From: an uncultured Verrucomicrobiae bacterium | GTDB taxonomy: Bacteria > Verrucomicrobiota > Verrucomicrobiia > Limisphaerales > Palsa-1400 | Direction: 5' to 3' | DNA: 64,000 bases | Assembly (NCBI GenBank): GCA_963702845.1 | Contig: OY969763.1 | Span: 1,504,001 to 1,568,000 of the forward strand | Shown: one piece after another, positions 9,134 to 53,678 of the stretch | How positions within the stretch are numbered: position 1 is the stretch's first letter | Layout of the letters: each line of letters opens with the position of its first letter | Notes under the pieces: model-generated | What the model was told of the DNA's origin: nothing | Seen by the model: the letters and a program-made list of their open reading frames with translations, nothing else | The model's database searches: none | Program-made: the position numbers and the translations under genes

Positions 9134-9145
9134 AAAATTGTCGTT

Positions 9146-38726: not shown

Positions 38727-38940
38727 CGGAAGTTCGGTTTCTATCCAGACAGTTTGCCAAGGTCTGAAACGCCGTGTAAAGCAGCTGTGGTAATAAAGTT
38801 GAGTCCAATGAAGGCAATCTCATACCTCTTGCTATCGCGATGCGATACCAACCCGCGGATTCACGGCGGATGTTTCAGTGTTTGGGGCACACGTTCTAAA
38901 AAGCCCTTACATTTTCATCAAGCGGCTACATAGCGTTCAA

Positions 38941-39008
38941 AAGTCAAAAAAGGTCAACTAAAGGAAGTAAAAGGCAACAAAATCAGATTTTTTCAGTTTT
39001 AACAGTTT
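38941..39008. repeat. 10-bp phased A-rich array
   Basis: aagtcaaaaa/aggtcaacta/aaggaagtaa/aaggcaacaa followed by tcagattttt/tcagttttaa/cagttttc. Confidence 0.6.
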
Positions 39009-39104
39009 TCAAAATCCCTTCAGTTTGACCACATGGAGGGTGTTTGGTTTGGCGCGGTCATATAGCGAAGCGCGTCGGCGGCGTCATCGCCGCCAGCTCC
39101 TCGC
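39009..39104 (-). pseudogene. Terminase large subunit C-terminal remnant A
   Basis: GAGGDDAADALRYMTA(fs)KPNTLHVVKLKGF*. Confidence 0.75.
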
Positions 39105-39179
39105 ATAAAATTCGAAACGAACTCAAAAGCTCAAATACAGATAAACCGCGAACTACGCGAAATATGCGAAAGGGTTTTT

Positions 39180-39366
39180 CATCGGCGCTGTGCGCGGTTG
39201 ATCGAGTGCCTGACGGCATTGCAGTACCGATCCGGCTCGGCCTGAGGATGTGGACAAAGTTGACGAAGAGGATGGAATCGGCGGAGACGACGCGGCGGAT
39301 GCGTTGAGGTATATGGTGGCGACGAAGTCGCGCGTAGTGGTTCAACGGAAGTTGAGGGGGTTGTGA
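39180..39366 (+). pseudogene. Terminase large subunit C-terminal remnant B
   Basis: HRRCARLIECLTALQY(fs)DPARPEDVDKVDEEDGIGGDDAADALRYMVATKSRVVVQRKLRGL*, with a TerL nuclease-type C..LI..L...D...DALRY motif. Confidence 0.8.
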
Positions 39367-39372
39367 ACTGGC

Positions 39373-39396
39373 GCCCAACACTCCAACCTCAGCGCA
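39373..39396 (-). other. Right half of an attC-like site
   Basis: Minus strand GCGCTGAGGTTGGAGTGTTGGGC ends in GTTRRRY just after the TIR stop and resembles the right arm at 44192-44213. Confidence 0.5.
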
Positions 39397-39408
39397 TGAT
39401 GATGCTCT

Positions 39409-40100
39409 TCATTCAAGGGGCCATCGAATCGGGTCAATGTCGCGCCGCTCAGCCCGCAGCTTGGCGATGATCTCATCGTAGTCGTGGTCCAGGACTACCG
39501 CCCTAACCTCTCCACGGACGGAGCGAACTGCCTCTAGGTTCTGCTCATAGAGTGTCGGATCGACGTAAAAGGTGCCGTCCCATCCGAGCGCAGACAAAAT
39601 ATCCCCGACTATGTAAATATCTTTCAGAGGATGTTGGCGTGCCTCGAGTGCGAGGCTCTGTTTTGGTATTCCGTGTGCAACGCCAGCAAGATACATGAGA
39701 GACTCGTAGTAGCGGTCGGTCGAGAAATCCAAGTAGATGCGATCCCGGAGCCATGCAGGAGGCGTCACTGATTCGAGCAAGAGAGGCAACACTACCTTGC
39801 TGCTTGTCTGCTTCTCCTTGGCGAACGCACTCGCCAATTCATCTTGGCACCATTCTGAATCCACAGACTTGGGCGAGAGCACAATTGCGACAAATTTTGA
39901 CGCATCCAGTCCGCGGCCAATTGAACGATGCAATGAATCGCCAACCTCTAGTTCCCATTCGTCAAACCAGACGTCGATTCCAAGACGCTGAGGTCGAGAA
40001 CAAGCTTGCGTGCGAATTCTTTGTCCTTGGAACTGTGACTCACGAATACATGAGGCTTCCGATCAGGATGACTCTCAAATGTTGGGCGTGCTACTGCCAT
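39409..40100 (-). CDS. TIR domain protein 1 (frameshift near 39991)
   Basis: MAVARP...VFVSHSSKDKEFARKLVLDL|QRLGIDVWFDEWELEVGDSL...IVLSPKSVDSEWCQDEL; one C missing. Confidence 0.85.
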
Positions 40101-40157
40101 AGGGGGCCGAGCCGGACGGGCCGCTGGTCAGAGGGGGCGTGAGCTTCCCAAAAAAAG

Positions 40158-40186
40158 TTGACAAACCGGCGTTGCGGCGCTAATCG
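40158..40186 (+). promoter_or_regulatory. Sigma70-type promoter of the FRG gene
   Basis: TTGACA-N17-TAATCG. Confidence 0.55.
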
Positions 40187-40279
40187 CACAAGGAAACTCT
40201 CCATCTTTAACGATTACTTATGGGGTTCGGTGGAAAGTTGTCATATATATATATAGCGCTAAAACGCACATCAACATTT

Positions 40280-41038
40280 ATGAATGATGGAATTACCTCA
40301 GGAGCTTGGACAGAGTTCCTCAACAAGATCAGAAAAGCAAAAAGCGCCTTAGGAAATCCAGATACGCTTTGGTATCGCGGTCATCCGAACTCTCAGTTTT
40401 ATCTGCTTGCCAATTTGCTCAGATATGAAAACGGGATCGAGAAGGAGCAGCAGCTATTCAATAGTTTTCAGAAGTTTGCTGACAGGATTTTGAAGCGTCG
40501 AGAGAGCGAATGGGAGACTCTTTTTGAGATGCAGCACTATGGCGTGCCAACTCGCTTGCTTGATTGGACGGAGACGTTTGGCATAGCGCTTTTCTTCGCC
40601 GCGACATATAACCAATCGCACCATCCCGACAAAGATGCGGCTGTTTACTTACTGAATCCTGTAGCTTTGAACAAAATTAGTGGAATCAACAAAGTTTATC
40701 GCGTGCCAAAAGATGAGGCCCGCTTCGGCTACACCAAAATCTATTGGCAGCAGGATCCATTCGCGGCCACCGCACCGATTGCCATCGAGCCTATTTTTAT
40801 TAATGATCGGATGTTGGCGCAGCGAGGTATGTTCACGGTTCATCACGACCAGATTGAGCCAATCGAAGAGCAATTCCCCAATGCCATCAAGAAGGTTATA
40901 CTGCCAAATAACGTCATCCCGGCAGCTCTAGAGTTTTTGGACCTTTCCAATATCACTCGGTATTCTGTGTTCCCAGATATTGCCGGCATCGCTGGCTATC
41001 TGAAGGGGACATCTGGGCTGGTTCCTCGATGGAAATGA
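40280..41038 (+). CDS. FRG domain protein 1
   Basis: WYRGH, MQHYGVPTRLLDWT, ALFFA, RMLAQRGMF, SVFPD. Confidence 0.92.
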   Translation: MNDGITSGAWTEFLNKIRKAKSALGNPDTLWYRGHPNSQFYLLANLLRYENGIEKEQQLFNSFQKFADRILKRRESEWETLFEMQHYGVPTRLLDWTETFGIALFFAATYNQSHHPDKDAAVYLLNPVALNKISGINKVYRVPKDEARFGYTKIYWQQDPFAATAPIAIEPIFINDRMLAQRGMFTVHHDQIEPIEEQFPNAIKKVILPNNVIPAALEFLDLSNITRYSVFPDIAGIAGYLKGTSGLVPRWK

Positions 41039-41115
41039 CAAACGCTCATAATTGCGGCGTTCAAAGCGGAGTCCAGAGGTTGCAAATCTCTGGCGTTCCG
41101 CCTTGTGGCGCGACA

Positions 41116-41203
41116 GGGGGATGGGGGGCGGCGGATGCGCTGCGGTGTTTGGTCGCGACGAAGCTGCGTGTCATCATGCAACGGAAGTTGAGGGGGGCTC
41201 TAA
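41116..41203 (+). pseudogene. Terminase large subunit C-terminal remnant C
   Basis: AADALRCLVATKLRVIMQRKLRG(L*), DNA clearly similar to 39290-39366. Confidence 0.8.
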
Positions 41204-41204
41204 G

Positions 41205-41385
41205 CGTTAGCACGCGGGGACTAGTGTCTATCTCTGCATCAACCAAACCGGCATCTTTCATCAGCGCAATCTGGTACGCCTCGCTGGGTGTTTGCGCCCA
41301 ATATCGCCCGTACCTCGCTGTCTTCAAAATCACGCGCCTCGGCCTTCTGAAGTATCTGCCGCACCAATTCCATGTCGCGTTTCAT
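41205..41385 (-). pseudogene. Truncated DUF2513-like gene
   Basis: MKRDMELVRQILQKAE...(fs) AYQIALMKDAGLVDA, cut off at terminase remnant C. Confidence 0.7.
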
Positions 41386-41401
41386 CGTAGTGTCCTGTGA
41401 G

Positions 41402-42310
41402 TTAATGATTCTCGTTCTCCTGGTCAATTTCTGCCAAAAGTAGCTCAATCACGTAGCTCCCAAGTTCCGTAGTTGTGTATCTCTGCCGATTCTCCAACCA
41501 TACAACGTCATCCGATATCAGGAAGGTTGGCGTAAAATGAGATTGTCTCAGTATTTTGAAGGGGTCGCTCTTGGAGATGCTCAATGTGAGTACCGATGCG
41601 TCATTATAAATGCCTCCCAAGCCGTGGAGTTCAACGAGCAGCGTCAAGCCGTGTCTTGCTCGCAACAAAATTTGTAACAGAGAGCCTTGTCCATGAAACG
41701 TGAGCCGTAACGACGCATGGGATTTGGAGATTTCTTCGGCTGTGCGTTGTACGGAACGGGATAATTCTGCGAACGCAGCCTGCACAAGAGAGACTCCTGC
41801 TTCGCTTTGTGACAGTCGCTCGTTGTTTTCCTTTTCCCGTAGATTGGCATCGACTGTTTTCGCTCGTTCAAGGGCCTTCGAAGGTTGGCTAACGCTTATC
41901 TTGCGTTCGGCAACGTCAATTGCGCGCTGAATCTCGAGGACAACACGGTCGATGCCATCGTTGGCGTTGACGGCCAGCCGGCCCGCAAGAATTGGCGAGA
42001 ATTTTCGGACGCCATCGAAAGCAATGTTTTTCCACACCGGCAGGATTACTTTTCGATTGGTCTCTTCCAGGGCAAAAAATCCATCGAGCTCATTTTGCGG
42101 CCATTTTTTTTGAAAAAACGCCGGACTCAAAACTACGACGCCGTAGTCGCATGATCGCAAGCCCTCGTTGATCTTTCCAGAAAGGCTGTCGCCAATCGTC
42201 AGCACGTATTTGTCGAACCAGACTTCATATATTGTTCTTAGACGGGCCGCCAATGGAGCAACGAAGTCCTGATCTTCCCAAGCGTAGCTGACGAATATAC
42301 GCGTCTTCAT
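41402..42310 (-). CDS. TIR domain protein 2 with unknown C-terminal domain
   Basis: IFVSYAWED, VWFD...IGDSL..KINEGL..CDYGVVVLSP..F.KKWPQNEL, ILPVW. Confidence 0.92.
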   Translation of the reverse strand: MKTRIFVSYAWEDQDFVAPLAARLRTIYEVWFDKYVLTIGDSLSGKINEGLRSCDYGVVVLSPAFFQKKWPQNELDGFFALEETNRKVILPVWKNIAFDGVRKFSPILAGRLAVNANDGIDRVVLEIQRAIDVAERKISVSQPSKALERAKTVDANLREKENNERLSQSEAGVSLVQAAFAELSRSVQRTAEEISKSHASLRLTFHGQGSLLQILLRARHGLTLLVELHGLGGIYNDASVLTLSISKSDPFKILRQSHFTPTFLISDDVVWLENRQRYTTTELGSYVIELLLAEIDQENENH

Positions 42311-42321
42311 CCTGTCAAAGG

Positions 42322-42609
42322 TTAAGCTGACTTAAGGTGGAAGATTATAGCGTCCGATAGGCTCAGCGTTCCAAGATAAGCGAGTCCAAGGGAATCCACT
42401 AAGGCTTCAAGGTGTTCCAATTGCGGCGGTGTGTTCGGTATTTTTTTGGCGAGTTCATCGCCTTTGCCCATGAACTTGATTCTAGATTCGTCGAGGGGTA
42501 TTCCGATGGCCTGCGACTCAAACCTTTGGATTATCAGGTGATTGTCCTCCGAATCCCATTCTTGGGTTATTTGCTTATCGCTGACATTAACGCACGCGGT
42601 GATCTTCAT
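42322..42609 (-). CDS. Hypothetical protein (95 aa)
   Basis: ORF ends 11 bp before TIR2; preceded on the minus strand by TTGACA-N17-CAGCCT-GAGGA-ATG. Confidence 0.55.
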   Translation of the reverse strand: MKITACVNVSDKQITQEWDSEDNHLIIQRFESQAIGIPLDESRIKFMGKGDELAKKIPNTPPQLEHLEALVDSLGLAYLGTLSLSDAIIFHLKSA

Positions 42610-42669
42610 TCCTCAGGCTGTGCGTCTTTGGCTGAAGCTGTCAAGTAACCGTTAGCATCTTGTGACGCG

Positions 42670-42772
42670 AACCCTGTCAAAATGTTTTTGTACAGAAAAA
42701 TGGCGCGTAGGGGCGAGGTGGGGCGTGGGCTTCAAAGGGCTTCGGAAAATTTTTCAAAAACAGGTGGTAAAA
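42670..42772. repeat. Conserved-end phased-array element, copy 1 (3 x 10 bp)
   Basis: AACCCTGTCAAAA..TTTTT..ACAGAAAAA [ggcgcgtagg ggcgaggtgg ggcgtgggct] CTTCGGAAAATTTTTCAAAAACAGGTGGTAAAA. Confidence 0.85.
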
Positions 42773-42886
42773 CTCGGGCGTGCGAGGAATTGGAGATTTT
42801 GAGATTTGAGATTTGAAATGGCGGGCGCGAAGTGCGCGAAGGGGCGAAGTCGTTAGCAGATAGCGAATAGCAGATAAATGGAGTCC

Positions 42887-42925
42887 GATAACGCAGCGTA
42901 TCCGCTGTGACTCAATCGCCCACCT
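42887..42925 (-). pseudogene. Highly degenerate terminase C-terminal remnant D
   Basis: ggtgggcgattgagtcacagcggatacgctgcgttat reads as GGD(D)TADTLRY when indels are allowed. Confidence 0.5.
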
Positions 42926-43268
42926 AAACAAATCGTGCAACATGATATCAGGCAACGCTCCACTTACCGCCGCGTTTTTCCAAAACTGCAGTCAGCATCG
43001 CAGAGTGCGCCCAGGGGCCGACGCCTGACCGAGGTTTGAAGGATCGGCGCGCAAGGCAGATGGATGTTGCCGTTGATCGTCGATCGGCAACGCAGCGATG
43101 CGTTTTCTTCGGCCAACTCTTTCGGCGTCGGGTTGCGGCCGGTATTTTGTTCAACGCGCAAGGGACTCTGCAGGAAGCGCGCCACCTATAAAACCCTTGT
43201 TCGCGTATTAAAAATATGTGCACAGTTGTCACATATTAATTGTCTAGGCCACTGCGCACACTTTCTTT

Positions 43269-44132
43269 ATGACCTACAAATACGATTTAGCCATTTCATT
43301 CGCAGGAGAGCAGCGTAGTCTGGCAGACACATTTGCGCGGCGCTTGGACGCATCTGGATATTCAGTCTTCTACGATGAGTTTCAACAAGCCGAGTTGTGG
43401 GGGCGAGACTTGTCGGTTGCCCTGAGCAGTGTCTATTCGCAGGAAGCCCGCTACTGCTTGATTGTGCTTTCCAAGGATTACGTGGCGAAGCCGTGGACCA
43501 ACCACGAACGCCAAAGTGCGATATCGCAGTTCATCCAACGCCGTAGGGACTACATCCTCTGCCTCAAAGTCGAAGACATTGAGTTGCCGGGTTTCCCAGC
43601 GGTCAACGGCTACATCTCTCTTGATCGATTCGACGTAGAAGCCATTTACAAGCTCCTCCTCCAAAAGCTTGGGCGCCCGGACCACGAAAACCAAGTTTCC
43701 CATCTCGACCCCGGCGACAGCGCAATTGCCCAACAGGTTATCGAGGCGTGTTTTCGACGCGCCATCTACACCCGAATGGATTCCGAGATCGACATGCGCT
43801 CCATGTATTACTCAATCGGAAAGGCCCTCGGCACGGTACAGCAACTGACGGCGCGGATTCGCGATCAGGCCCTCCAACATGCCTGTGGCGAGATCATTAT
43901 AGCTCTCGACGAAATAGAGCGCGCCCAGACTCGCTCTGATGCTGGAGTGTCGAATCACCTCCCACAACCCATCCGGCAGCAACTCGACCTAAGCAAACAA
44001 AAGGTTGTTCGCCTGCTTCTTGAGATCCGTCGCGCTACTAAGATTCCGATGCAGTTACCCTTCGCAATCCAGACCGACCATTTTTGGGGACCAGAGGAAG
44101 CCGATCAAAAACCGCGAGAGAACGCTGCCTAA
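43269..44132 (+). CDS. TIR domain protein 3 with helical C-terminal domain
   Basis: YDLAISFAGEQR, GYSVFYD...LWGRDL, YCLIVLSKDY..KPWTNHE. Confidence 0.92.
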   Translation: MTYKYDLAISFAGEQRSLADTFARRLDASGYSVFYDEFQQAELWGRDLSVALSSVYSQEARYCLIVLSKDYVAKPWTNHERQSAISQFIQRRRDYILCLKVEDIELPGFPAVNGYISLDRFDVEAIYKLLLQKLGRPDHENQVSHLDPGDSAIAQQVIEACFRRAIYTRMDSEIDMRSMYYSIGKALGTVQQLTARIRDQALQHACGEIIIALDEIERAQTRSDAGVSNHLPQPIRQQLDLSKQKVVRLLLEIRRATKIPMQLPFAIQTDHFWGPEEADQKPRENAA

Positions 44133-44142
44133 ACAATCGCGA

Positions 44143-44213
44143 GCCCAACCATCGTGCTGCGGTTGCCAGCCACGCGACCCGTGGGTCGCGCCGCTGAACT
44201 TGGGTCGTTAGCC
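44143..44213 (+). other. Integron attC-like site
   Basis: GCCCAAC (RYYYAAC) 10 bp after the TIR3 stop, internal CGCGACCC-GT-GGGTCGCG hairpin, ends GCTGAACTTGGGTCGTTAGCC (GTTRRRY-like); 71 bp. Confidence 0.65.
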
Positions 44214-44270
44214 CTCGTTCACAACCCCGTCGGCTGCATTGTTTAGGTCAATCTGGTCGGTGGAAATGAA

Positions 44271-46301
44271 TTATTCTCCTTTGCCCTTTCGGGCCTTTAT
44301 CACGTTGTCAACCTCCTCAAGGATTCCCATTTGTGCGCACGTCTTCCGAAAATATGCATTCTGCAAGGTGAGGTTGAACTGGTTCGACAGGTTCACCGCG
44401 TCAGTGAACCAAGGTAGCGTCGCTGCGTGCGGGGCATCCGTGTAGAAGCTCAAAATCATGCCCATCAAGTAACAAAACTCCGGTTCGAAAGCCGGGATCT
44501 TATCGACGACTTTGTCCACGTTCGACTCAATCTCCTCGCGAATCCGTAACAACATCTGTTTGTCTGTCGATGGGTCTTGGAATCCGACCATCAGGATCTT
44601 GAGATACTCCACGATGGTTTCAAGGTACTGCGGGACCCGATTGAGATCGGAGTAGTAATTCCCGGCTTCCTGGATGTGGCGAAAAGCCTCCAGAAAATCC
44701 TGGTGCTTTCTGGCGCCAATGGCGATGGCGAGCGCGCTAAGCGCCAAGAGGTGTGGCTCATGGTACTTTTGGGCGAGGCACCTCGCCCGGGCGGCATCAT
44801 CCAGGCCCGACGCAAGCACGGCGGGGTTGGAGTCGCGGAATTTGATCATGGCCCTGCGACTGAGCAGTTGAGAAAGCCGAGGTTCGTCCCACTCCCGTTC
44901 CATTTCGTAGATCGCGCGGTCCAGATACACCATCACATCGGCAAAATATACCAAGGCGTAAAAGGAATAGTAGTAGATGACATCGGCCCATTCGGTGGTG
45001 GTGGGCTGCCTGCGAAACAGGTCAGTCAGGCTTTTCGGAAAATCTTTGAAGAGGACGGGATTCGCGTTGTACGTCTGCACCAGGGCGAGCAACCCCAGCG
45101 TTTCCGGAGATGTGTTCCGCTCGTGGTGGAGGTTAAGCTTTGCAGGATTCGTCAGATATTGTTGAACTCCGTCCGGGGTTTCACCGAACGGAACCTGGAC
45201 GATGCTGACTTCTATGGCTTGGGCGCGTTGCACCTTGTTCTGGAAATTGAACGCGTACGACCGGCCATGATTAAGGAGAAATCGTTCCAGAGAATCGGTC
45301 TTGTAGTCCATCTGCTGCCGTTCTTTCCAGACCCGGTCGTAGAGGTACCGGGCGGCTGCCTCGTCCCCGTTCGCTTCCGCCAAAGCGAACATCATATTCG
45401 CCGCATCCATCGGGTTGAGAGCTTGAATCTTCTCCCGCAACCGTTCCGCAAGAGTTCGGAGTTCCCGATTCGGTGGCACAAACGGAGAACAGGGAATCGA
45501 GGCGTCCGTCAGTCTCGCTTCCAGGAACGTCGTCGCGTCCGCCTCGACAGCAGTGGCCTTTTCGGGGCCATAAAGGGCGATCAGTTCCCTGATGCTGTCC
45601 CGGACGCGGGTCGCAGGCTGGTGCAGAAAAGTGAATCCTCTCGCAAACAAAGCGGCGTCACGGAACCCCAAATAGTTCAGATTGTCATCGAAATCGGCGC
45701 CGGAAAACCCGGCAAACAGAAACAGGTGCTCGCTCAGCAAAGACGCCAATGCCCGTTCCAAGCTCCTGGCCCGGCCCTTAAGCCGTTGCTTGCGCGTGTC
45801 CACCATCGATTCGGGCGAGGAGCAACAGCCGTGGATCTTGATGACCGGAATCTCGCCGGGGGGCTGCTGCTCGAAGGCATTGAAATCCGCTTCGTTAATC
45901 AACGCACGAAACGGAACGCGCGCGTCGACAAATGCACGTTCGAAGTTCTGGTCAAAATTGGTCGTCACCACAGCTCTTATGAGCCCCGTGCGGGCTCCAT
46001 TGGCGGTATAATGATGGAAGGCATTGTAGAAGTCTGAGTCTACAACGGTGAGCAGGTCGAAGTATTTCATACCTACGCGTTCCACCATCACCTGCGCTTG
46101 ATAATCCGGAGGAAAGGCATATTGCTTTCTTTTCGCTTTGATATGACCGAACACATCGCCACGAACCCGGTCCGGCAGGTTGTAAGGGGTCATCCTGTCC
46201 CAAAGCGCCTCCAATATGGCATCGTTCAGGTCGAACCACCCCGGCAGAGAGGCAGGGGGCCCAACCGAGCAACCCGCACCAGCGAAGATCACAAGGCTCA
46301 T
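44271..46301 (-). CDS. SIR2-like (SIR2_2) domain protein with TPR-like helical C-terminus
   Basis: VIFAGAGCS...LPGW, VTTNFD, IKIHG, FAGFSGAD; helical repeats after about aa 300. Confidence 0.88.
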   Translation of the reverse strand: MSLVIFAGAGCSVGPPASLPGWFDLNDAILEALWDRMTPYNLPDRVRGDVFGHIKAKRKQYAFPPDYQAQVMVERVGMKYFDLLTVVDSDFYNAFHHYTANGARTGLIRAVVTTNFDQNFERAFVDARVPFRALINEADFNAFEQQPPGEIPVIKIHGCCSSPESMVDTRKQRLKGRARSLERALASLLSEHLFLFAGFSGADFDDNLNYLGFRDAALFARGFTFLHQPATRVRDSIRELIALYGPEKATAVEADATTFLEARLTDASIPCSPFVPPNRELRTLAERLREKIQALNPMDAANMMFALAEANGDEAAARYLYDRVWKERQQMDYKTDSLERFLLNHGRSYAFNFQNKVQRAQAIEVSIVQVPFGETPDGVQQYLTNPAKLNLHHERNTSPETLGLLALVQTYNANPVLFKDFPKSLTDLFRRQPTTTEWADVIYYYSFYALVYFADVMVYLDRAIYEMEREWDEPRLSQLLSRRAMIKFRDSNPAVLASGLDDAARARCLAQKYHEPHLLALSALAIAIGARKHQDFLEAFRHIQEAGNYYSDLNRVPQYLETIVEYLKILMVGFQDPSTDKQMLLRIREEIESNVDKVVDKIPAFEPEFCYLMGMILSFYTDAPHAATLPWFTDAVNLSNQFNLTLQNAYFRKTCAQMGILEEVDNVIKARKGKGE

Positions 46302-46391
46302 ATTTGTTTCATTAACTTCCTTTGAGGGCGCCGGCGGGAGGAAGGCGTCGCTCGATCCTCGAAAAGCGGTATCGCACGATGATCGTTCTAA

Positions 46392-47924
46392 TCAAGGGAT
46401 CCCAAACGTGATTAAATTCGCGGGATTGAACAGGATTGGCTGGCGGCCGATCGCCGCTTGAGACGGAATAACTTCTGTGGAAAAAATTTCCCGGAATCGG
46501 TTGAAGTCAAACATCAATCGCGGATTGTAAATCATTTTAAAATAATCACGGACGCTCTTAATCTTCTTGCGGAAATCCGGTTTGAGGAGCTCGTTCAGAT
46601 CCGGTCGAAGCGCGCGCCGGAGAGCGTCGAACGAAACATAACCCTTGGACCCGCAGCCATCGACGGCAGCAAAGCCCGCTTCCATGCCCGGTCCGCAGAA
46701 ATCAGCAAAGATCTTCATCTGGGTCCCACGGTCGGTGGTGCGAGCAAGGCCGTAGGCCATCAGTCCAATCGCGCCGCCACACGCCGTCGCGATTTCATCG
46801 TCGGAGTAAGGCAACCTTCGCATCCCGTTCCAAATAAGCCTAAGTGTGTCACAGAGAGTGTCCGCAGAGAGACTGTTGGCAGTCAACGGAACCGGAAGCG
46901 GTTGAACCATCCAATCAACCGCTTTGTTGCGGATCGTTCGATCGCTGCGCAAGACCTGTTGAACGCCGTACGTCACAGCCTGTTGTAGATCCCGCGGTGA
47001 CGTAATGGGTCTCAAGTTCAAACGCATGAGCGGCCCTTTTGTATCGTGGTACTTTTCGTCAATGGCCGCTCCCCATGGCTGGAGCTGCGATGGAGTCCAT
47101 GAATCGAGCGGAACCAGTATTTCTGGATTCAAAAACGCCTGTTCGTAGAAGCCGTTCGGAAAACTGTTCCACTTTACATAACTTCCTCCGGGGCCACCGT
47201 CCGCGCGCGACTTCGTCACCCATTCTCGCATTTGTTCATTGGAGAAAGTTAAATTCTCCAGGTCAAAGTACTGATCCAGCAATTGTTCGAGTGCACTCTT
47301 GTGCGCGGGATAGATGTCTTCCTTTGTGGGAAACGGTGGCGGACCAGTTCGGGGAAACACAATACGGTCCATGGGAAAATCAACCTCCCAATTATAAGTT
47401 GCGTAGATAAAAACACCATGCTGTGCCTGCAAGCGCCAGAGATTTCGGACGTCGAGCGTAATCAATTCGATGGCCGCGCCACGACGTTCATCCAAATCCT
47501 TCATTACGTCCCATACTTCCATCAACTCGCGCGTATCGAGGCAATAAATACATGCCGGGTGTTCGTCCGGCGCGGCTGTGGTGTCGGTGGCAAAAAAGCC
47601 AGCCACCCCGGGCTCGGTAGTGAAGTCAATGTAGCGGGTGGGGACGCCATAATGTTGGAGGATGGCAAAAAAGTTGTGCACAGAAGCCGCATCTTGCAAG
47701 TAGCGCAACGTCTCGTGATCGGCCAACCACTTATAGAACATTCTAATCCGGCGGTTGTAATGCTCCAAATCCGCGGGTTGCCACTGCGTTTGACGACGCA
47801 AAATCGAGGAGTGCGGCGGCCAGTCACGTACCTGTCCCCGAAACCAGTCATAGCGTCCCTCCTGCTTAAACTGCTGGGCCATTTCAACGGCTCTTTCTAC
47901 CGAATCAACTTCAAACGTTTCCAT
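46392..47924 (-). CDS. FRG domain protein 2 with long C-terminal extension
   Basis: WFRGQ, LQHYGVPTRYIDFT, AGFFA, RLQAQHGVF. Confidence 0.88.
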   Translation of the reverse strand: METFEVDSVERAVEMAQQFKQEGRYDWFRGQVRDWPPHSSILRRQTQWQPADLEHYNRRIRMFYKWLADHETLRYLQDAASVHNFFAILQHYGVPTRYIDFTTEPGVAGFFATDTTAAPDEHPACIYCLDTRELMEVWDVMKDLDERRGAAIELITLDVRNLWRLQAQHGVFIYATYNWEVDFPMDRIVFPRTGPPPFPTKEDIYPAHKSALEQLLDQYFDLENLTFSNEQMREWVTKSRADGGPGGSYVKWNSFPNGFYEQAFLNPEILVPLDSWTPSQLQPWGAAIDEKYHDTKGPLMRLNLRPITSPRDLQQAVTYGVQQVLRSDRTIRNKAVDWMVQPLPVPLTANSLSADTLCDTLRLIWNGMRRLPYSDDEIATACGGAIGLMAYGLARTTDRGTQMKIFADFCGPGMEAGFAAVDGCGSKGYVSFDALRRALRPDLNELLKPDFRKKIKSVRDYFKMIYNPRLMFDFNRFREIFSTEVIPSQAAIGRQPILFNPANLITFGIP

Positions 47925-47971
47925 AAAAGTGAAGTGGACTTGCAGGACTGGTGATGTGGCGATCCTCCCGA

Positions 47972-48802
47972 TTAACGTTTTGGCGGTGGAGGCGGATTTG
48001 GCGCACCAGGATTGCCGGCTGTCGGTCCGGGCGATTGCGGATTGGGACCGGGAGCAGGCTGGCTGGAGTTCGCGGTTTGCGGCACGGCATCAGCGCCAGA
48101 CTTCGGTTTCACGAAGAACACGTCAGCGATGTCTTTGAGTTTCAATACGGCGTTTTCACTGAACAGGCCGATCAGCGCTGCCAGAGCGCAAAAACCGAAC
48201 GGGCTGGTTTCACTAAAATTTGCCGTTGGCGAAAAGAAGCCGCCGCGAACGACAAAGTAAAAGATCGCGGCCAATCCTAATCCCATGAAAGGTCTCAAGT
48301 AATAATACAACAACCAGCTCGTCACAAAGCCACGGTTGCCCACATACCATGAAATTGACCGTAGAGCATGAACACAAGCTCCAAGCGCCCCCGCCAGGAG
48401 GACGAGCACAAAAAGCCGGGCGTCGTTGTACAGGACGAATTTCCGCCAAAACAGGCTGGCTTGCTGTGGGTCGTAATAGATGCTTTCTTCCCGCTCGGCA
48501 CCTTCACCAATCTTCGAGCCTTGAGTGTCATTACTGGTCGGAGATGTTATCCCGGGCGGAGGGACGCCGGAGGATTGCGCGTTGGTGGACGGGCCATGAA
48601 TCTGACTGGACTCAACGCGTTTGAGTCCACTGGGGGTCGGCCGAGGCCAAAGCGCGATAAAACAGTATACAATCAAAACAACGAGTAACGCGTAGGTGAT
48701 GCAAAGCAGCGCAAGATCGCCGACGGAGGCGAGCTCTTTTCCTGGTCCCTGGCCGGGTTTGAACACCGTAGGCGGGGGAGGGCCATATGATGGCGCGTTC
48801 AT
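47972..48802 (-). CDS. Four-TM membrane protein with Pro-rich tails
   Basis: LAGALGACVH...YVGNR...W..YY.LRP..G...A...Y...RGG, GLFS..A..KL; probable start MNAPSY. Confidence 0.75.
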   Translation of the reverse strand: MNAPSYGPPPPTVFKPGQGPGKELASVGDLALLCITYALLVVLIVYCFIALWPRPTPSGLKRVESSQIHGPSTNAQSSGVPPPGITSPTSNDTQGSKIGEGAEREESIYYDPQQASLFWRKFVLYNDARLFVLVLLAGALGACVHALRSISWYVGNRGFVTSWLLYYYLRPFMGLGLAAIFYFVVRGGFFSPTANFSETSPFGFCALAALIGLFSENAVLKLKDIADVFFVKPKSGADAVPQTANSSQPAPGPNPQSPGPTAGNPGAPNPPPPPKR

Positions 48803-48809
48803 AAGCGGT

Positions 48810-49007
48810 TCAGGATTGTTTCCAAAGTCGCAACGTCCACCCGTGCCATTCGGGTTCCGAGCTGTCCACGCGCTCAAGCGTTCCGATATCTTCCTTGTTC
48901 CATACAAGCAAGCACGCGTTTAGCGCGAGACGGCGGTCGTCAGCGCTTTTTGCGACGCGGCCAATGCTGGCTTCGTCGGTCATCCACAGGTCGGCAGTAT
49001 CGCTCAT
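48810..49007 (-). CDS. Small hypothetical protein (65 aa)
   Basis: Fills the gap between two co-oriented genes (15 bp and 7 bp spacers). Confidence 0.45.
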   Translation of the reverse strand: MSDTADLWMTDEASIGRVAKSADDRRLALNACLLVWNKEDIGTLERVDSSEPEWHGWTLRLWKQS

Positions 49008-49022
49008 AGTTTTTTTTGTGTT

Positions 49023-50159
49023 TTAGAACATTGCGTTTGTGTAAAAATGAACGGCTCCCTTTTCAGCACCGGTTTTAGCCGCATCGTTGTTGAGTTTCTT
49101 CAACTTCGCTTGGGCATCCTTTTGAAACTGTTCCAATTCAAGTTTGCGAGCTGCAGGCAATGCTGGTTGAGTGAGTTCTGCCGCGATCGCGTTTGCGTTA
49201 GAACGCAAAATTGCCCGGTACCGGCCAAATTCGTTATAATCTTTGGGAGCTGCGGCATTGACCACCGTGCTTTGCAGATTATGAGCAGCGGGTGGTGGAG
49301 GTGTAGTGAACTGAAGATAGGAGGCAGGGATAAACGAGCCAAGATTATTGAGGGCATCGACCTGTTCTTTCGCGCGAGGGTCGCCGTTAGCAGCGGCGGC
49401 CTGCAAGCGCGAATAGACATGGTTCAAAATCGTTTCATCGTGGATAGCGGAATCCGTGCGCGTGCCAACAGCGCCGGAAATCGCCATGGAATCGAGGGCG
49501 GCCTTTATCTGCGGGTTTCCCGCTGCGATTTCGGCGGCTTTGCCTGTGGCAAAGGATTGTTTTATGCGCACACCACCGTTGTTCGGGAAATTGGTGGTAA
49601 TGCCTGTTTCATTGGTGGTTGAATTGACGGTAATATCGGCATATACGGACCGGACTTCCGCCTCGGACTCTTCGACAGGTATGATCGTGCCCTCCACCCG
49701 TTTATACCCGAGCAGAAACGTGGGACTTACGTCCTGTTTGCCCGCAGAAATCTTCAGCCCGAAACTTGTATCGGTCACGAAGAAGAGCGGATCTTGGCCG
49801 GTGGTTGAATTCCTGCATGGACAGCCCGCCCCGGCGTCAGCAACCGGAGGCGTAGAACGAGCAGCGATTTGCGCGGCTTTGCCGGTAGCAAACGTCTGGC
49901 GAATCGTGTATTTGGGCGGAAACCATTTCATGTCCGCATCGAGGCCGCCGTAAACAGAGTACGGATCGCCAGTGGTGCTGCGTGGGACGATGGCGCCTTC
50001 GTATCGGCTAGTAGAGAGGGAGACTTTGTCGGGCATTTGGGCTGTGCCCGACACTTCCATACCGATGGATGTTTTCGTTGCGAAGAAGAGGCGGGGAGCG
50101 CATCCGGTATGGATCAGAAGCCCCAAACAGATTATTGCATTTGCGATTATTGTTTTCAA
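49023..50159 (-). CDS. Putative lipoprotein with internal duplication
   Basis: Signal ending HTG-C; repeated motifs LFFxTxTSxG...R.EG.I.P...SVY...I.Q.FATGKAA. Confidence 0.75.
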   Translation of the reverse strand: MKTIIANAIICLGLLIHTGCAPRLFFATKTSIGMEVSGTAQMPDKVSLSTSRYEGAIVPRSTTGDPYSVYGGLDADMKWFPPKYTIRQTFATGKAAQIAARSTPPVADAGAGCPCRNSTTGQDPLFFVTDTSFGLKISAGKQDVSPTFLLGYKRVEGTIIPVEESEAEVRSVYADITVNSTTNETGITTNFPNNGGVRIKQSFATGKAAEIAAGNPQIKAALDSMAISGAVGTRTDSAIHDETILNHVYSRLQAAAANGDPRAKEQVDALNNLGSFIPASYLQFTTPPPPAAHNLQSTVVNAAAPKDYNEFGRYRAILRSNANAIAAELTQPALPAARKLELEQFQKDAQAKLKKLNNDAAKTGAEKGAVHFYTNAMF

Positions 50160-50788
50160 TGAGATGTAATGGAGTGGATTGAATAGTTGAAGTCGGGAAC
50201 TGACGGAGAAAAATTATATTCGACATCGCCGCTGACGTTCTCATCGAGAACGGTCGTCAAGGTCGTTTTCGAGATACCGATTTTGAGGTTAGGGTCGGCA
50301 TTGGCGACGCGAAGGCAGCCGCCCTTGACGCTGTTCACAAGAAGCCGCACGTGATTGTTCTCGCGCGGGATGCGGTAATGGACGAAGCCCAAATACCAGC
50401 CGTTGACATTGCCAAAGCCGAAGCCCGAGGGCGCGAGAAAACGGTTGGTGGCAGAATTAGAGAGCACGAATCCGCGCGCCTGCTGTTGCCAACCTAATGC
50501 GGCTTCGATTCCCACCGGAATGACGGCAAGATCAAACGGGGCGGTTTGGGTCTTTTCCTTGGCCAAAACCGTTCTGTAGTCCAAGGGTCTCAATTCGACG
50601 GTGTGACGGGACAGTCCCATCGACCAGGTATCGCCGGCGGCTGATTCGAATCGAAAGGCACAGCCGGCGCAGGAAGTTACAACTAGAAGCAGGCTGAAAA
50701 TAGAAGCTTTGGTGAAAGCAACCGACCGGAACGGGGTTGCTGTTCTGGATGAAAACCGATTGCTACATTTTCTCCGCTCATCACTCAT
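50156..50788 (-). CDS. Putative lipoprotein
   Basis: LLLVVTSCAGC lipobox-like segment; 4-bp overlap with the next gene; start uncertain. Confidence 0.55.
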   Translation of the reverse strand: MSDERRKCSNRFSSRTATPFRSVAFTKASIFSLLLVVTSCAGCAFRFESAAGDTWSMGLSRHTVELRPLDYRTVLAKEKTQTAPFDLAVIPVGIEAALGWQQQARGFVLSNSATNRFLAPSGFGFGNVNGWYLGFVHYRIPRENNHVRLLVNSVKGGCLRVANADPNLKIGISKTTLTTVLDENVSGDVEYNFSPSVPDFNYSIHSITSH

Positions 50789-51119
50789 TCCGTAAGCTCC
50801 GGTTTCAGTATTGCTGACAACAATACGCCATCGACAGGTCGAGCCCGTCCTGATTGTCGATCCGCCTCGCTGACATTCTAGGTATTTTGACAATCGTTCG
50901 CCCGTGAATATGCATTGCTGTATTTGACTGCGCGCGGACGTTAACAACGAATGCACGGAATAGGCAAGAGTTTAATTGACAGCCTTTGCTTATGCATCGA
51001 AACCGGAGATATCAGGTTACTGATTTTCGGTTCTATGTTATTATTCTAGTCTGTTTCTTAATCAGACAGCCACTGAGACGAAATTGCGGTCAAATACGGT
51101 GGGGGTTACATACGCGATA

Positions 51120-51326
51120 TCATTCGTTGGTTTTGACCAAACGGATATCCATGACATCATCGGGATTGAAAGCTTCATCGGTTTGACAATCTTCACCGTT
51201 GAACACTAATGCGTTCTCAATGAGATGATTGTTTTTCAGGACCAAGGTTACCCTCTGGTAACCCATTCCCGACTCGGGCATCTGTGCCAGACGCTGGCTC
51301 CAGAATTTGTTGAGGCGGATGATCAT
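51120..51326 (-). CDS. Small PExGMGYQ-motif protein (putative antitoxin/partner)
   Basis: MIIRLNKFWSQRLAQMPESGMGYQRV...; starts 1 bp after the upstream stop. Confidence 0.75.
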   Translation of the reverse strand: MIIRLNKFWSQRLAQMPESGMGYQRVTLVLKNNHLIENALVFNGEDCQTDEAFNPDDVMDIRLVKTNE

Positions 51327-51327
51327 C

Positions 51328-52095
51328 TTATCTGTCCGGGATGGTCGTTGGTCCGGCAACTGTGCCATCGGGCAGCCCCAGAACAAAGATCACTTCTTCA
51401 CCACCTCCGGGCTGATTGTTAGCGGGTTGCACAGTTCCACGTTTAACCTCCGAATCCTTCGCCGGTGAGATAGTGAACACGTTGCTTGCCGGCTTGCTGT
51501 TTGGCAGCGCATATCGTGCGACCGCATCTGTTCCGGTACGAACGTGCGCATCCGCGTCCTGCTTTGTCGTCGCGAACGTTCCCGGAGTAAGGCCTTTGCC
51601 TGAAGTGACGCGTATGTCGTTGGCGTACTGCGAAAAGCGTTTAAATATTTCGTTTTCTACGGTCAATGTAACCGGGGCTGTTTCAGCAGCCGCGCTTTTA
51701 GCACATAAGGAAAAGTTCTGGGCTTCCGCGAGTAAGGTGGTGCGCGTATTTCCCAATGCGTAACTGGCCTGACTTTCTTTCCGGTTTGCCAGAACTCGGA
51801 ATTTCTCGTTTGCGAAGACTACTTGGCGCACTCCTTTCAGCGTTTCGGGTTCGCGGGGTATAAGTGTTACATTCTTTACTATCAACCTCGATTTCCTCGC
51901 CTCGGTAAGGATGTAATTCCAATTTCCGAACATGTGGTAAGGGTAATCGTCCCGTTTCAAAAAAACCTGGCTGTTGACTACTATTCCTGATTCTGTTCCA
52001 CCGGTGTTCAAAGTGGCGATCACCTTTTGGTAGCCCATGCGATACTCAGGTTGTTTAGACAACCAATATTCCAACCATCCTTCTAGTGGCAGCAT
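51328..52095 (-). CDS. PExxMGYQ N-terminal domain plus C-terminal TNT-like toxin domain
   Basis: QPEYRMGYQKV; C-terminal FKRFS...GTFAT...RYALP...GTVQPANNQPGGGEEV. Confidence 0.7.
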   Translation of the reverse strand: MLPLEGWLEYWLSKQPEYRMGYQKVIATLNTGGTESGIVVNSQVFLKRDDYPYHMFGNWNYILTEARKSRLIVKNVTLIPREPETLKGVRQVVFANEKFRVLANRKESQASYALGNTRTTLLAEAQNFSLCAKSAAAETAPVTLTVENEIFKRFSQYANDIRVTSGKGLTPGTFATTKQDADAHVRTGTDAVARYALPNSKPASNVFTISPAKDSEVKRGTVQPANNQPGGGEEVIFVLGLPDGTVAGPTTIPDR

Positions 52096-52297
52096 GGGGA
52101 GTTGATAAGCGCGTGCGTACGATAACGCAATCCGTTTTCGCGAGATTTCGACGCTCATGCGGCGACAGCGTTCTTAAAGCGAGTACGACTAACGAAGGGA
52201 CATTGACAGTCACGGACGATCATGGGAACGAATTATTACGGGGACGCTTTCGCGTGGCCGCTGGGCTAATTTCTGTAACCCCTTCGGGGTATTTCAA

Positions 52298-52419
52298 AAC
52301 CCTGTCAAAAGTTTTTGCACAGAAAAATGGCGTGCAGGGGCGTTGTGGTGCGCGGCGAGGCGTGCTGGTGCGTGGTGGGTTTTGAGCTTCGGAGGAATTT
52401 TCAAAAACATGTGATAAAA
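52298..52419. repeat. Conserved-end phased-array element, copy 2 (5 x 10 bp)
   Basis: Same ends as 42670; units ggcgtgcagg ggcgttgtgg tgcgcggcga ggcgtgctgg tgcgtggtgg. Confidence 0.88.
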
Positions 52420-52444
52420 AGGTTCGCGTGAGTGCGACCAGGAA

Positions 52445-52568
52445 AACCCTGTCAAAACTTTTTTTCACAGAAAAACTGCATGTCCGTGCATGTTCCTGCA
52501 ACTCCCTGCATGTTGGTGCATGTCGGTTTAGGGACTTCGGAAAAATTCTCAAAAACATGTGCTAGAAA
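52445..52568. repeat. Conserved-end phased-array element, copy 3 (5 x 10 bp, different unit)
   Basis: Same ends; units tgcatgtccg tgcatgttcc tgcaactccc tgcatgttgg tgcatgtcgg. Confidence 0.88.
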
Positions 52569-52727
52569 TCTACGCATGAAAAAGAACCATCAGTTTATCA
52601 AGAGGCCGGCGAAGCCGGTGGCGCATCCACAGTCGAATAAGCAAGCTGCGGATTCTCAACGCAAACGTGCCGCACAGAATAGGGTGCAAGTCGGCCAGTG
52701 TGAGCCATCTTCAAAAAACTGCCCGAA

Positions 52728-52767
52728 TGTCGCATGGTTTCGCTTTGTTTCGCGTGGCTTCGCTAGA
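52728..52767. repeat. 10-bp phased array (TCGC core)
   Basis: tgtcgcatgg tttcgctttg tttcgcgtgg cttcgctaga. Confidence 0.7.
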
Positions 52768-52890
52768 CGCCTGGCGGCGAAACTCTCACACTATACACAC
52801 ATGAAAGAGACATCGCGTTCGACCAACTACCTGTCGCGCCGAAGTCAGACGCAGGCGGATCAACCCTCAACCATTAACTTGTTTTAACCA

Positions 52891-53262
52891 ATGCATTCTA
52901 CAGACACAAAATCAAAGTTCCTCGAGTTCCGCGGCAAAGGCTGGAGCCTTGCCCGCATCGCAAAACAAATCGATGTCAGCGTCCGCACCTTGGCCGACTG
53001 GAACCAGCAACACCGCCAGGAAATACGCACGCTCCGCGCCATCGATATCGAAGCTCTTCAGGAAAAGTTTCTCGCCACCCACGAGCAGGAGCTCAGTTCT
53101 CTCACCGCCCAACTCCAGCGCATCGAGCAAGCGATCGGCGACAGCAAACTCCAATTCGTCGAAACTAAAGACTTATTCCGACTGGCTGCCGTGACCCGCG
53201 CCGAAATCCGCAAAGTCATCATACCCACGGAGCCGGATGATAAATCGCATGCACAAAACTAA
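52891..53262 (+). CDS. Small HTH protein with coiled-coil C-terminus
   Basis: GWSLARIAKQIDVSVRTLADW HTH motif. Confidence 0.82.
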   Translation: MHSTDTKSKFLEFRGKGWSLARIAKQIDVSVRTLADWNQQHRQEIRTLRAIDIEALQEKFLATHEQELSSLTAQLQRIEQAIGDSKLQFVETKDLFRLAAVTRAEIRKVIIPTEPDDKSHAQN

Positions 53263-53265
53263 AAT

Positions 53266-53636
53266 TGCATCGTTTCTGCATCATTTTTGCATCATTTCCC
53301 AAATGGAGGCCGTTACAAAATCCAGCGGCGGTCACGTTTGGTCACGTTCGGTCATGTTCAGTCATCTTTGGTCACGCGCGCCCATTGCTTGCGTCCTTCT
53401 TGTCGCGCCGGAGCGCCGCGGGAAGGCGGACGCGCCCGTCGCGCAAAATCCATTACCGGTCAAATTCGGTAAAGAAAAGGTAAAGAAACAGTAAAGTTTT
53501 GCCCCTCGTAAAATGAACACGGTTCAAACGAAAAAACGTACAGAAAATGTACAGAGAGGTTCAGTTTTCGGTTCACGCCTGAAAAACCGTGAAAAAGGTA
53601 ACGGGAGGTAATCAGAAGTAATCGGAGGTAATCCGT
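53266..53636. repeat. Cluster of five different 10-11 bp phased arrays
   Basis: TGCATC x3 (53266, period 11); GTCAC/T x5 (53331, period 10); GTAAAG x3 (53469, period 11); GTACAG/GTTCA x4 (53538); GTAA x4 (53597, period 10). Confidence 0.82.
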
Positions 53637-53678
53637 GCTATGCTGCGTTCAACCCAAATCACTCATCACTCATCACGT

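Follow-up and report, generated by a model that had tools for sequence, protein, structure and literature searches.

An accessory-gene island in a Verrucomicrobiae chromosome with the probable cassette architecture of a phage terL–portal hotspot

We analysed a window of 64,000 nucleotides (nt) from an uncultured Verrucomicrobiae bacterium, corresponding to bases 1504001–1568000 of the single 6.03 Mb contig of its genome (G000), and studied in it the region from 38.9 to 53.6 kb. This region carries TIR-, FRG- and SIR2-domain genes together with short 3′-terminal pieces (“stubs”) of terL, the gene for the large terminase subunit (TerL). Our reading, held with moderate confidence, is that it is an island of accessory genes in the chromosome whose cassettes are organised like those of a cargo hotspot located between terL and the portal gene in a resident family of temperate phages. 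The reading is based on three short repeats found around the stubs, which we call T (the terL 3′ end), H (a hairpin) and P (promoter-like), and on the presence of the same repeats around variable genes in intact prophages. Positions are those of the window unless a locus (L and a number) or the genome is named, and feature coordinates are collected in Table 1.

The stubs were detected with an nhmmer DNA profile that covers the final 100 nt of terL and was derived from 16 genomic copies. In the window it gave three significant matches, T_A, T_B and T_C; the next best, at 42887–42909 (−), had an E-value of 0.22, and a six-frame motif search of 38500–54000 returned the identical three remnants and no others. 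A preliminary description of this DNA had listed four TerL remnants, of which three are therefore borne out and the fourth is not. T_A covers TerL residues from about 404 to 464, ends at the terL stop codon and has no hairpin upstream; the peptide ...GGDDAADALRYMVATKSRVVVQRKLRGL followed by the stop is encoded at 39241–39366. T_B, which is 81% identical to T_A over 69 nt, forms with it a pair of direct repeats bracketing 1.8 kb. T_A and T_C lie head to head (39009–39366), with 73 nt between them.

Genome-wide, the profile found 21 terL 3′ ends, comprising seven full-length genes (476–527 aa), which supply the intact TerL locus that had been sought, and 14 stubs (frames of 26–182 aa). The long genes are identified as large terminases by Pfam and PHROGs, and a gene for the small terminase subunit (TerS, phrog_6299) lies ahead of each. 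All 14 stubs are 3′-terminal, and a full TerL query gave no N-terminal or middle fragment except for a weak 28-residue match (E 9.6e-4). The stubs retain 50–190 nt of terL in G000 and up to 430 nt in L035. Ten of them are at phage-free sites (the window, L002, L005, L007, L008 and L011), two are in prophages, and two lie beside a TerS–TerL pair at L006. Stubs at phage-free or partly assembled sites were also found in two same-genus genomes (G001 and G002) and in two other Verrucomicrobiota assemblies (L035 and L045); the phage-derived remnants thus recur outside this window, as the preliminary description had supposed.

The stubs differ from intact terL mostly at synonymous sites: there are 10 synonymous and 2 non-synonymous changes in the last 28 codons of T_A relative to the nearest full-length terL, and the corresponding ratios for three other stubs are 9:2, 10:2 and 10:3. 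The stubs therefore derive from separate functional alleles, with little decay since. The stubs inside the prophages pp1716 and pp4295 are 82–87% identical to the adjoining terL 3′ end, and so are not copies of it. A hidden cis-acting element in the terL 3′ end was considered and rejected: among the seven intact genes its third-position identity in a sliding window is 0.44–0.46, the same as in the rest of the gene, and this lack of any unusual nucleotide conservation argues against such a site.

The other two repeats accompany the stubs and the cargo genes. H has an inverted repeat, CCAGAG-9 nt-CTCTGG, and a terL stub, whether intact or decayed, comes after each of its 15 copies in the genome. 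P has 39 genomic copies at the threshold used, with 7–25 nt between its end and a start codon, and an open reading frame (ORF) of at least 60 aa follows 37 of the 39 copies, compared with 63% of 5000 random positions. The “attC-like sites” of the preliminary description are likely to be the copies of P and H in the window. Two other identities were tried for these repeats and rejected. P was compared with a LexA-type box, and its half-site spacing, judged by eye, is unlike that motif. H, with its loop UUGCAAA, was considered as a fragment of tRNA-Cys; an ARAGORN scan of the window and of 12 loci gave no tRNA, and the sole tRNA-Cys gene, to which H was not aligned, is at 2.457 Mb, far from any H.

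Read in the direction of terL, the order is terL with its T, a backward gene with a backward P, H–T, a further backward gene with a backward P, H–T (decayed), and so on, such that each cargo gene has T at its 3′ side and P–H at its 5′ side. P–H–T composites occur at r1717k, r4294k, r2361k and r2817a, and H–T at T_B in the window; in all five H–T composites the stub starts at the GGDD codons. At these codons about 10 nt, GGAGGCGACG, are common to terL and to the stretch downstream of solitary copies of H. In G002 the sequence 3′ of H is a decayed T that still carries GCGTTGCGGTA, and H–T therefore looks like one ancestral unit. Divergence among the H copies starts 10–50 nt to the right of H, not within its spacer.

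The same arrangement is found in phages. Of the seven intact terL genes, five are in prophages which, according to Pfam and PHROGs, have the order replication genes, TerS, TerL, a gap of 4–15 kb, portal, scaffold and major capsid; the replication genes comprise a PD-(D/E)XK nuclease, PIF1 helicase, primase-polymerase/D5 and AAA_25, and the portal is DUF4055, phrog_145. The gap contains mostly small ORFs on the opposite strand. The order of TerL, backward ORFs and portal is also seen in L025, L038 and L041 from other assemblies, with gaps of 2.9–4.7 kb. Four integrase homologues are located at the far ends of the prophages, three of them within about 1–31 kb of a tRNA gene. The loci L006 and L012 have TerS and TerL only, beside host genes. 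The L006 arrangement is kept in a same-genus genome (L030), beside the same DUF1501 gene, and may represent a retained relic or a domesticated terminase.

Comparison of related phages indicates turnover between the repeats. In the G002 phage at L025, whose TerL is 87% identical to that of prophage pp135 in G000, H begins 6 nt after the terL stop, which is in effect an empty site. In pp135 a 448-nt cassette, consisting of a reversed small membrane gene and P, is present between the terL stop and H, and its insertion duplicated neither T nor H. The sister prophages pp1716 and pp4295 are 88% identical in terL and 94% in H–T, yet have unrelated genes at both cassette positions. The gap thus behaves as a hotspot, lying between two conserved core genes with variable cargo and conserved flanks, and it shows gene replacement, insertion and deletion between repeats of related genomes in the manner of the promoter early stem-loop (PeSL) units discussed below. 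At other hotspots (L009:979-2916 together with L034, L004:3959-4453 and L033:901-1368) we observed several small genes in succession, every one of them preceded by a P repeat. We also observed an IS110-family (RNA-guided) insertion sequence of 1.7 kb with six genome copies, including L008:8660-9811 (−) and L033:2698-3849 (+). One copy abuts a terL-stub stop codon exactly and another lies inside the pp1716 hotspot; targeting of the terL stop by this element was rejected, as only one of the six copies abuts a stub and the flanks of the others are unrelated.

We therefore regard “homology anchor”, the term of the preliminary description, as a fair name for the terL 3′ end in that it is a repeated flank beside variable cargo, and the proposal that it recurrently anchors captured variable genes is partly supported by these sequence comparisons. 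The first T of the cassette array is terL's own 3′ end. In the mechanism that we propose, recombination between the repeated flanks would swap, add and delete cassettes. Both homologous exchange and crossovers within the short GGAGGCGACG match at the GGDD codons could bring this about, possibly by way of excised mini-circles. The T stubs at island edges would then be terL leftovers after loss of the remaining phage. Both the movement of the cassettes and their route from phage to chromosome are what we infer from comparative anatomy.

A stronger version of this proposal, which we hold only tentatively and consider rather unlikely, is an integrase-free, integron-like phage system. Here P–H–T would be a recombination and expression unit, made up of an operator-bearing promoter, a hairpin and the terminal ~90 nt of terL. 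Docking would take place at the end of this essential gene as the fixed site, and mini-circles would dock at any terL allele or chromosomal stub. If true, such docking would explain why the stubs resemble freshly cut functional alleles, and why TIR, FRG and SIR2 genes have accumulated at phage-free chromosomal sites.

The stubs could alternatively be marks of site-specific integration. They would be att scars left by small integrative elements with the terL 3′ end as their target, each bringing a replacement 3′ end like islands that target tRNA genes, with a tyrosine integrase supplied in trans or from larger elements recombining an attP-like H–T with terL or a stub, and islands growing by accretion. 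All H–T composites do begin the stub at the same codons, the inverted repeat of H is shaped like a core site, and stubs are found at island edges, with T_A and T_B as direct repeats around 1.8 kb. At L023 of G001 (7159–9967), a tyrosine integrase (7159–8475) ends about 250 nt before a stub (8725–8838), which is followed by a defence gene, DUF262/HEC-06 (E 8.7e-94), truncated by the contig end. However, the 20 kb loci examined around the 14 G000 stubs contained no integrase or other recombinase, the integrase homologues of this genome being at prophage ends; stub lengths vary (50–190 nt, and 430 nt in L035); the H copies diverge to the right of H and not inside the spacer; and the filled site of pp135 has no duplication of T or H. 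We consider this explanation improbable. A PF10136 site-specific recombinase near a G002 stub was also considered and set aside, as it has no homologue in G000.

Could the stubs simply be erosion relics of dead prophages, in which terL was deleted down to the piece beside selected cargo without any special recombination? Island-edge stubs do vary in length and lack H, and two further observations fit this explanation. The first is a portal 5′ stub at genome 808325–808411 (L013:5326-5412, +), which covers residues 2–30 at 79% identity and indicates that the other hotspot flank can likewise survive alone; we observed a P repeat and a period-10 array ahead of it, making it a mirror image of the terL stubs. 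The second is at L031 of G002 (C534, 262–5301), where an orthologue of the sulfatase gene that borders the window's island (86% identical) is preceded by genes for portal, scaffold and capsid from this phage family, so that such a phage was once hosted in this neighbourhood within the genus. A WYL/WCX regulator gene is also found ahead of this sulfatase orthologue. Erosion does not account well, on the other hand, for stubs behind an intact terL in pp1716 and pp4295, both of which have the full order from TerS to capsid and stubs only 82–87% identical to their terL. Nor does it account for the recurrence of P–H–T with the same junction, for the 14 terL stubs as compared with a single portal stub, for the lack of fragments of any other phage gene in the island, or for the position of the islands, which are not beside the tRNA genes where prophage integrases lie. 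We therefore judge erosion alone to be unlikely.

We return to the hotspot reading and to its cargo. In the island, six of 13 ORFs match PADLOC models, namely PDC-S66 (TIR), PDC-S15 (FRG) and PDC-S65/S25 (SIR2), with ThsB in addition for one TIR gene. These TIR, FRG and SIR2 genes are most likely NAD-depleting or abortive-infection defences. A possible Thoeris system was examined: one TIR gene matches ThsB (E 7e-23), and the SIR2 gene matches ThsA through its SIR2 domain alone (E 3e-8). No NCBIfam equivalog scored above its cut-off, and no SLOG/STALD domain was detected.

Defence genes are much rarer next to other terL ends. Of 150 ORFs in other terL-linked cargo, only one matches PADLOC at E 1e-5 or better, the DUF262/HEC-06 gene after the G001 stub; of 55 ORFs in five further assemblies, one has a marginal match (ShosT, E 8e-6). 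Known defence genes thus make up two of 205 ORFs beside stubs outside the window, and among these neighbours the enrichment for defence genes expected by the preliminary description is not seen. The set of 150 leaves out 11 of 161 candidates (seven from L023, three from L007 and one from L011) and includes one added open-ended ORF. Among the omitted L023 ORFs and one omitted L007 ORF, Pfam gave six with a non-defence family or none and one tyrosine integrase; the other three (L007, L011) were host-type genes on a later scan. Immunity-protein types (Imm32, Imm50 and Imm53) occur among the cargo, most of which belongs to no family. Several of the small hotspot genes are of these polymorphic-toxin immunity types, with no toxin gene near. 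We conclude that the anchor is tied to variable cargo generally, and not to known defence specifically.

The preliminary description had combined the stubs with phased arrays and a helix-turn-helix (HTH) gene into one dispersed element. The HTH gene and most of the arrays are instead a separate 1.19 kb multi-copy element, here called the R-element, whose position at the border of the island is incidental. Over 1192 nt it has 91% identity to genome 812345–813534, with an HTH ORF that is 100% identical there. It has discrete ends, the same right end in four copies, and its copies lie between ordinary host genes; 11 of its 13 copies or fragments are separated by 78 kb or more from the nearest terL end, and those in the window and at L005 are the exceptions. 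No transposase was found for it, and no empty site was recovered for the copy at 812 kb, where the relatives' contigs break at the repeat. We note that two copies lack the ORF only and keep the non-coding parts, resembling non-autonomous derivatives of mobile elements. Homologues of the HTH protein number 83, all from Verrucomicrobiota-type metagenomes and mostly on contigs shorter than 2 kb, as expected of a repeat that breaks assemblies.

The single HTH gene of the preliminary description is confirmed, and the “about ten” arrays correspond to eight of period 10/11 by Tandem Repeats Finder (TRF), plus three of period 7/9. In the rest of the window, period-10/11 rows reach at most 2.1 copies. 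Confinement of these features to 15 kb is true of the window; it is not true of the genome, which has 21 terL ends, 276 period-10/11 arrays (at least 2.5 copies each) and 13 copies or fragments of the HTH/array repeat. The arrays cluster at R-element copies and at other intergenic sites, and their motifs differ. Period 10 is over-represented in the genome relative to periods 8, 11 and 12. Intergenic array clusters unlinked to terL or to the HTH gene were observed at genome positions 1022811–1025142, 843373–843670, 4978942–4979225, 5404039–5404287, 4658673–4659083 and 3530925–3531376. A phased array lies within 300 nt of only three of the 21 terL ends (L006, L012 and T_C), which are those that abut non-phage DNA. 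The remnant described as running into an array is T_C, which ends at 39009, with the array just beyond it. Arrays and HTH gene are distributed independently of TerL.

These distributions bear on a packaging function. In that explanation the island would be part of a satellite-like element, or one like a gene transfer agent (GTA), with terL ends and arrays as pac-like or binding sites, the HTH protein as a small-terminase-like recogniser, and the defence genes mobilised in particles. The three array-bearing terL ends fit it, and in L006 and L030 (G002) the terL stop is followed by the GTAATCAGAA array that is also part of the R-element. A second TerS-like gene, at genome 5404.5–5405.1 kb, has arrays and a fragment of R2 on its flanks. 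The HTH protein matches Terminase_5 weakly (E 0.0019) and one TerS-like ORF by BLASTP (E 0.004). Its only PHROGs match, however, is to a family of unknown function (E 7.7e-4), and its predicted structure (mean predicted local distance difference test score 85.5) has as its best Foldseek matches generic LuxR/GerE-type HTH proteins with E-values above 0.2. Alignment by hhalign of the HTH family (31 sequences) with TerS of these phages (13 sequences) gave a probability of 1.8% over 25 HTH columns, and a sequence search of the PDB was empty. We therefore reject the identification of the HTH protein as TerS; it probably binds the arrays of the R-element itself. Also against packaging are the ordinary conservation of the terL 3′ end described above, the 11 of 13 R-element copies that are far from any T, the 18 of 21 terL ends without an array, and the 276 arrays with differing motifs spread over the genome. 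Finally, the island has no capsid, portal, integrase or replication gene (Pfam on 17 ORFs, PHROGs, and tblastn of all ORFs from the seven terL loci, which matched the island only in terL 3′ ends and short repeats). The absence of capsid, portal and integrase genes was already noted in the preliminary description, and this content does not suit its satellite- or GTA-like interpretation, which we regard as very improbable.

Several observations weigh against the interpretation of the island as a derivative of the terL–portal hotspot. In the window, the typical converging gene is found only at T_A and T_B, while the forward FRG gene ahead of H–T_B, and everything from 43 to 52 kb, are without flanking T or H. 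Of the 14 stubs, ten are outside any prophage and away from tRNA genes, which leaves the route of the hotspot array to those sites unexplained, and the left breakpoints fall within the last 50–190 nt (430 nt in L035), more tightly than random erosion predicts. P has no match in a sigma-70 consensus scan and H is not followed by a T-run, so that their promoter and terminator roles are putative. Neither a mini-circle intermediate nor a recombinase was observed, the mechanism being derived from comparative anatomy, and the integrase upstream of the G001 stub fits the site-specific model better. Two of the six stub-bearing chromosomal islands (the window and L005) adjoin an R-element, and the three terL ends that abut non-phage DNA carry period-10 arrays; some link between arrays and terL is therefore possible.

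The layout of the island is given in Table 1. The truncated TIR gene converges on T_A, and the 302-aa TIR gene, together with the 95-aa ORF upstream of it, converges on T_B. The 44–52 kb part contains no T, H or P. The five family-less ORFs may belong either to the island or to the host backbone; they had no match in three relatives, which are 67–81% complete. In the same three genomes, the left flank and the 47.9–52.2 kb genes were unmatched and only the sulfatase side was matched, and no empty site for the island was obtained. A dispersed repeat, Lrep, abuts the right end of the R-element in inverted orientation at four other loci, and in the window is on the opposite side of the island. Its position and orientation, and the head-to-head stubs, suggest an inversion relative to the arrangement in L005 or a more complex rearrangement. 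An Rfam E-value scan of 36–56 kb gave one chance-level small RNA match and nothing else. Outside the island, we noted at 35366–36100 (−) a glutamine-rich putative lipoprotein of 244 aa built of 21- and 42-nt tandem repeats (TRF rows 35559–35773).

Table 1. Features of the island, its borders and related loci. Positions are in the window unless a locus or the genome is named.
Feature	Position	Strand	Evidence and remarks
FemAB/GNAT-type genes, left neighbour	36766-38726	-	ORF listing and family scans
Lrep, ~90-nt dispersed repeat	38815-38920	+	BLASTN; genome copies at 862794, 876634, 1164781, 2353507, 2941162, 3895563, 4344031
Period-10 array CAAAAGGCAA, 4.5 copies	38938-38993	.	TRF; just past stop-codon end of T_C
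T_C, degenerate terL 3′ stub, GAGGDDAADALRYMTA...	39009-39101	-	nhmmer E 2.7e-11; tblastn; motif search
T_A, terL 3′ stub, one frameshift	39175-39366	+	nhmmer 39268-39366, E 4e-25; BLAST extension
TIR-domain fragment, 174 aa, N-terminus truncated	39409-39933	-	Pfam TIR_2 E 5.9e-14, profile positions 42-111 only; PADLOC PDC-S66 E 7.8e-10
FRG-domain gene, 272 aa	40220-41038	+	Pfam FRG E 1.1e-19; PDC-S15 (candidate single-gene system) E 3.8e-42
H, ~30-nt hairpin repeat GGAGTCCAGAGGTTGCAAATCTCTGGCGT	41065-41102	+	15 genome copies
T_B, terL 3′ stub of the H–T composite type	41128-41201	+	nhmmer E 1.3e-14; starts at GGDD codons
TIR gene, 302 aa	41402-42310	-	TIR_2 E 1.8e-21; PDC-S66 E 9.5e-44; ThsB model E 7.4e-23
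95-aa ORF upstream of 302-aa TIR gene	42322-42609	-	No family match
Solitary R1 unit, then period-7 and period-9 arrays	42670-42850	+	Repeat families D1, D5, D6; TRF; BLASTN
P, promoter/operator-like repeat (~70 nt), palindrome ATATGTGCACAGTTGTCACATAT	43160-43262	+	Stops 7 nt short of TIR start codon
TIR gene, 287 aa, behind P	43269-44132	+	TIR_2 E 7.5e-15; PDC-S66 E 1.7e-14
SIR2-like gene, 676 aa	44271-46301	-	SIR2_2 E 1.5e-16; ThsA, PDC-S65, PDC-S25 via SIR2 domain only, E about 1e-8
FRG-domain gene, 510 aa	46392-47924	-	FRG E 1.5e-13; PDC-S15 E 5.1e-20
Five ORFs: 311-aa proline-rich membrane protein, 378-aa putative lipoprotein, 266, 88 and 276 aa	47972-52158	-	No Pfam, PADLOC, PHROGs or NCBIfam match
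R-element	52281-53633; canonical unit 52444-53633 (1190 nt); extra R1 unit 52297-52431	+	Contains HTH gene and six period-10/11 arrays
HTH gene, 123 aa	52891-53262	+	Three-helix HTH, then 43-residue helix; Pfam HTH_23 and Terminase_5 weak, below cut-offs
Period-10/11 arrays in the region (n = 8)	38938, 52476, 52730, 53266, 53329, 53468, 53533, 53608		TRF
Period-7/9 arrays in the region	39147, 42789, 42825		TRF
Sulfatase gene, right neighbour	53679-55178	-	ORF listing and family scans
R-element copies	Genome 812345-813534, 876802-877728, 1163151-1164747, 2104811-2105457, 2353638-2354472, 3332711-3333639
TerS–TerL pairs with no other structural gene	L006:8197-10530, L030:1745-4158, L012:9076-11258	-	Period-10 arrays, then host genes downstream

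Among known systems, tRNA- and tmRNA-targeting islands have edges marked by direct repeats of the 3′ end of the target gene and can accrete in tandem. Here the target would be a phage gene, and an integrase is beside a stub in one locus only, of another genome (L023 of G001). Integrons hold single-gene cassettes between imperfect-palindrome sites (attC), anchored at a fixed site and served by the integrase IntI and a common Pc promoter. The cassette array, the repeated palindromic sites and the single anchor are similar here, which fits the “attC-like” impression of the preliminary description. However, neither the ORFs of the island nor the 20 kb loci around the G000 stubs encode an IntI-type integrase, each cassette has its own promoter-like element, and the repeats are composites of about 250 nt and not attC, so that we do not class the array as an integron. 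Phage satellites (phage-inducible chromosomal islands (PICIs), P4-like elements and PICI-like elements (PLEs)) and GTAs differ in that the island, by Pfam, PHROGs and tblastn, has no integrase, replication or packaging-redirection genes and no head–tail cluster. It resembles Thoeris in having TIR genes with ThsB-model matches and a SIR2-domain gene beside a TIR gene, but the best matches are to the PADLOC candidate single-gene systems PDC-S66, PDC-S15 and PDC-S65.

The closest parallels are with phage gene-shuffling hotspots. Prophage and satellite defence hotspots, in P2-like and P4-like elements, are reported to have a fixed position between conserved phage core genes and rapidly changing cargo, with anti-phage genes among it (Rousset et al. 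2022, PMC9122126). Relative to that account, the position here is terL–portal, the cargo is split by repeated flanks, the studied island has lost its phage, and outside the window only two of 205 neighbouring ORFs match defence models. In T4-type phages, PeSL units of a promoter and a stem-loop flank non-essential genes, between which genes are inserted, deleted and replaced; the shuffling is attributed there to recombination between the repeats, and mini-circles are reported (Arbiol et al. 2010, PMC2839356). The present case is like PeSL, as described there, in that short repeated promoter-like and hairpin units flank swappable genes. It differs from that description in that the repeat is a three-part composite including a stub of an essential structural gene, and in that the phages are temperate and verrucomicrobial, with arrays that are also found in the chromosome without a phage; moreover P, a putative promoter, has no sigma-70 consensus match, and H, a putative terminator, has no T-run. 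A limited literature search met no account of terL 3′ stubs as cassette flanks, and we make no claim that they are absent from print.

We therefore conclude that the arrangement is a variant of gene-shuffling hotspots known from phages and does not amount to a new kind of system, PeSL-type shuffling and prophage defence hotspots having both been described before. If our reading is right, the end of an essential phage gene anchors an array of swappable genes, and in a little-studied phylum the same repeated flanks mark accessory genes within phages as well as in chromosomal islands that lack a phage; the terL stub, hairpin and promoter-like repeat together would provide a sequence handle for phage-borne cargo in Verrucomicrobiota. 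This cargo consists mostly of small proteins of unknown function that are missed by known defence models. The arrangement would also offer an example in which to study the passage of hotspot cargo out of a phage and its establishment in the chromosome of the host.

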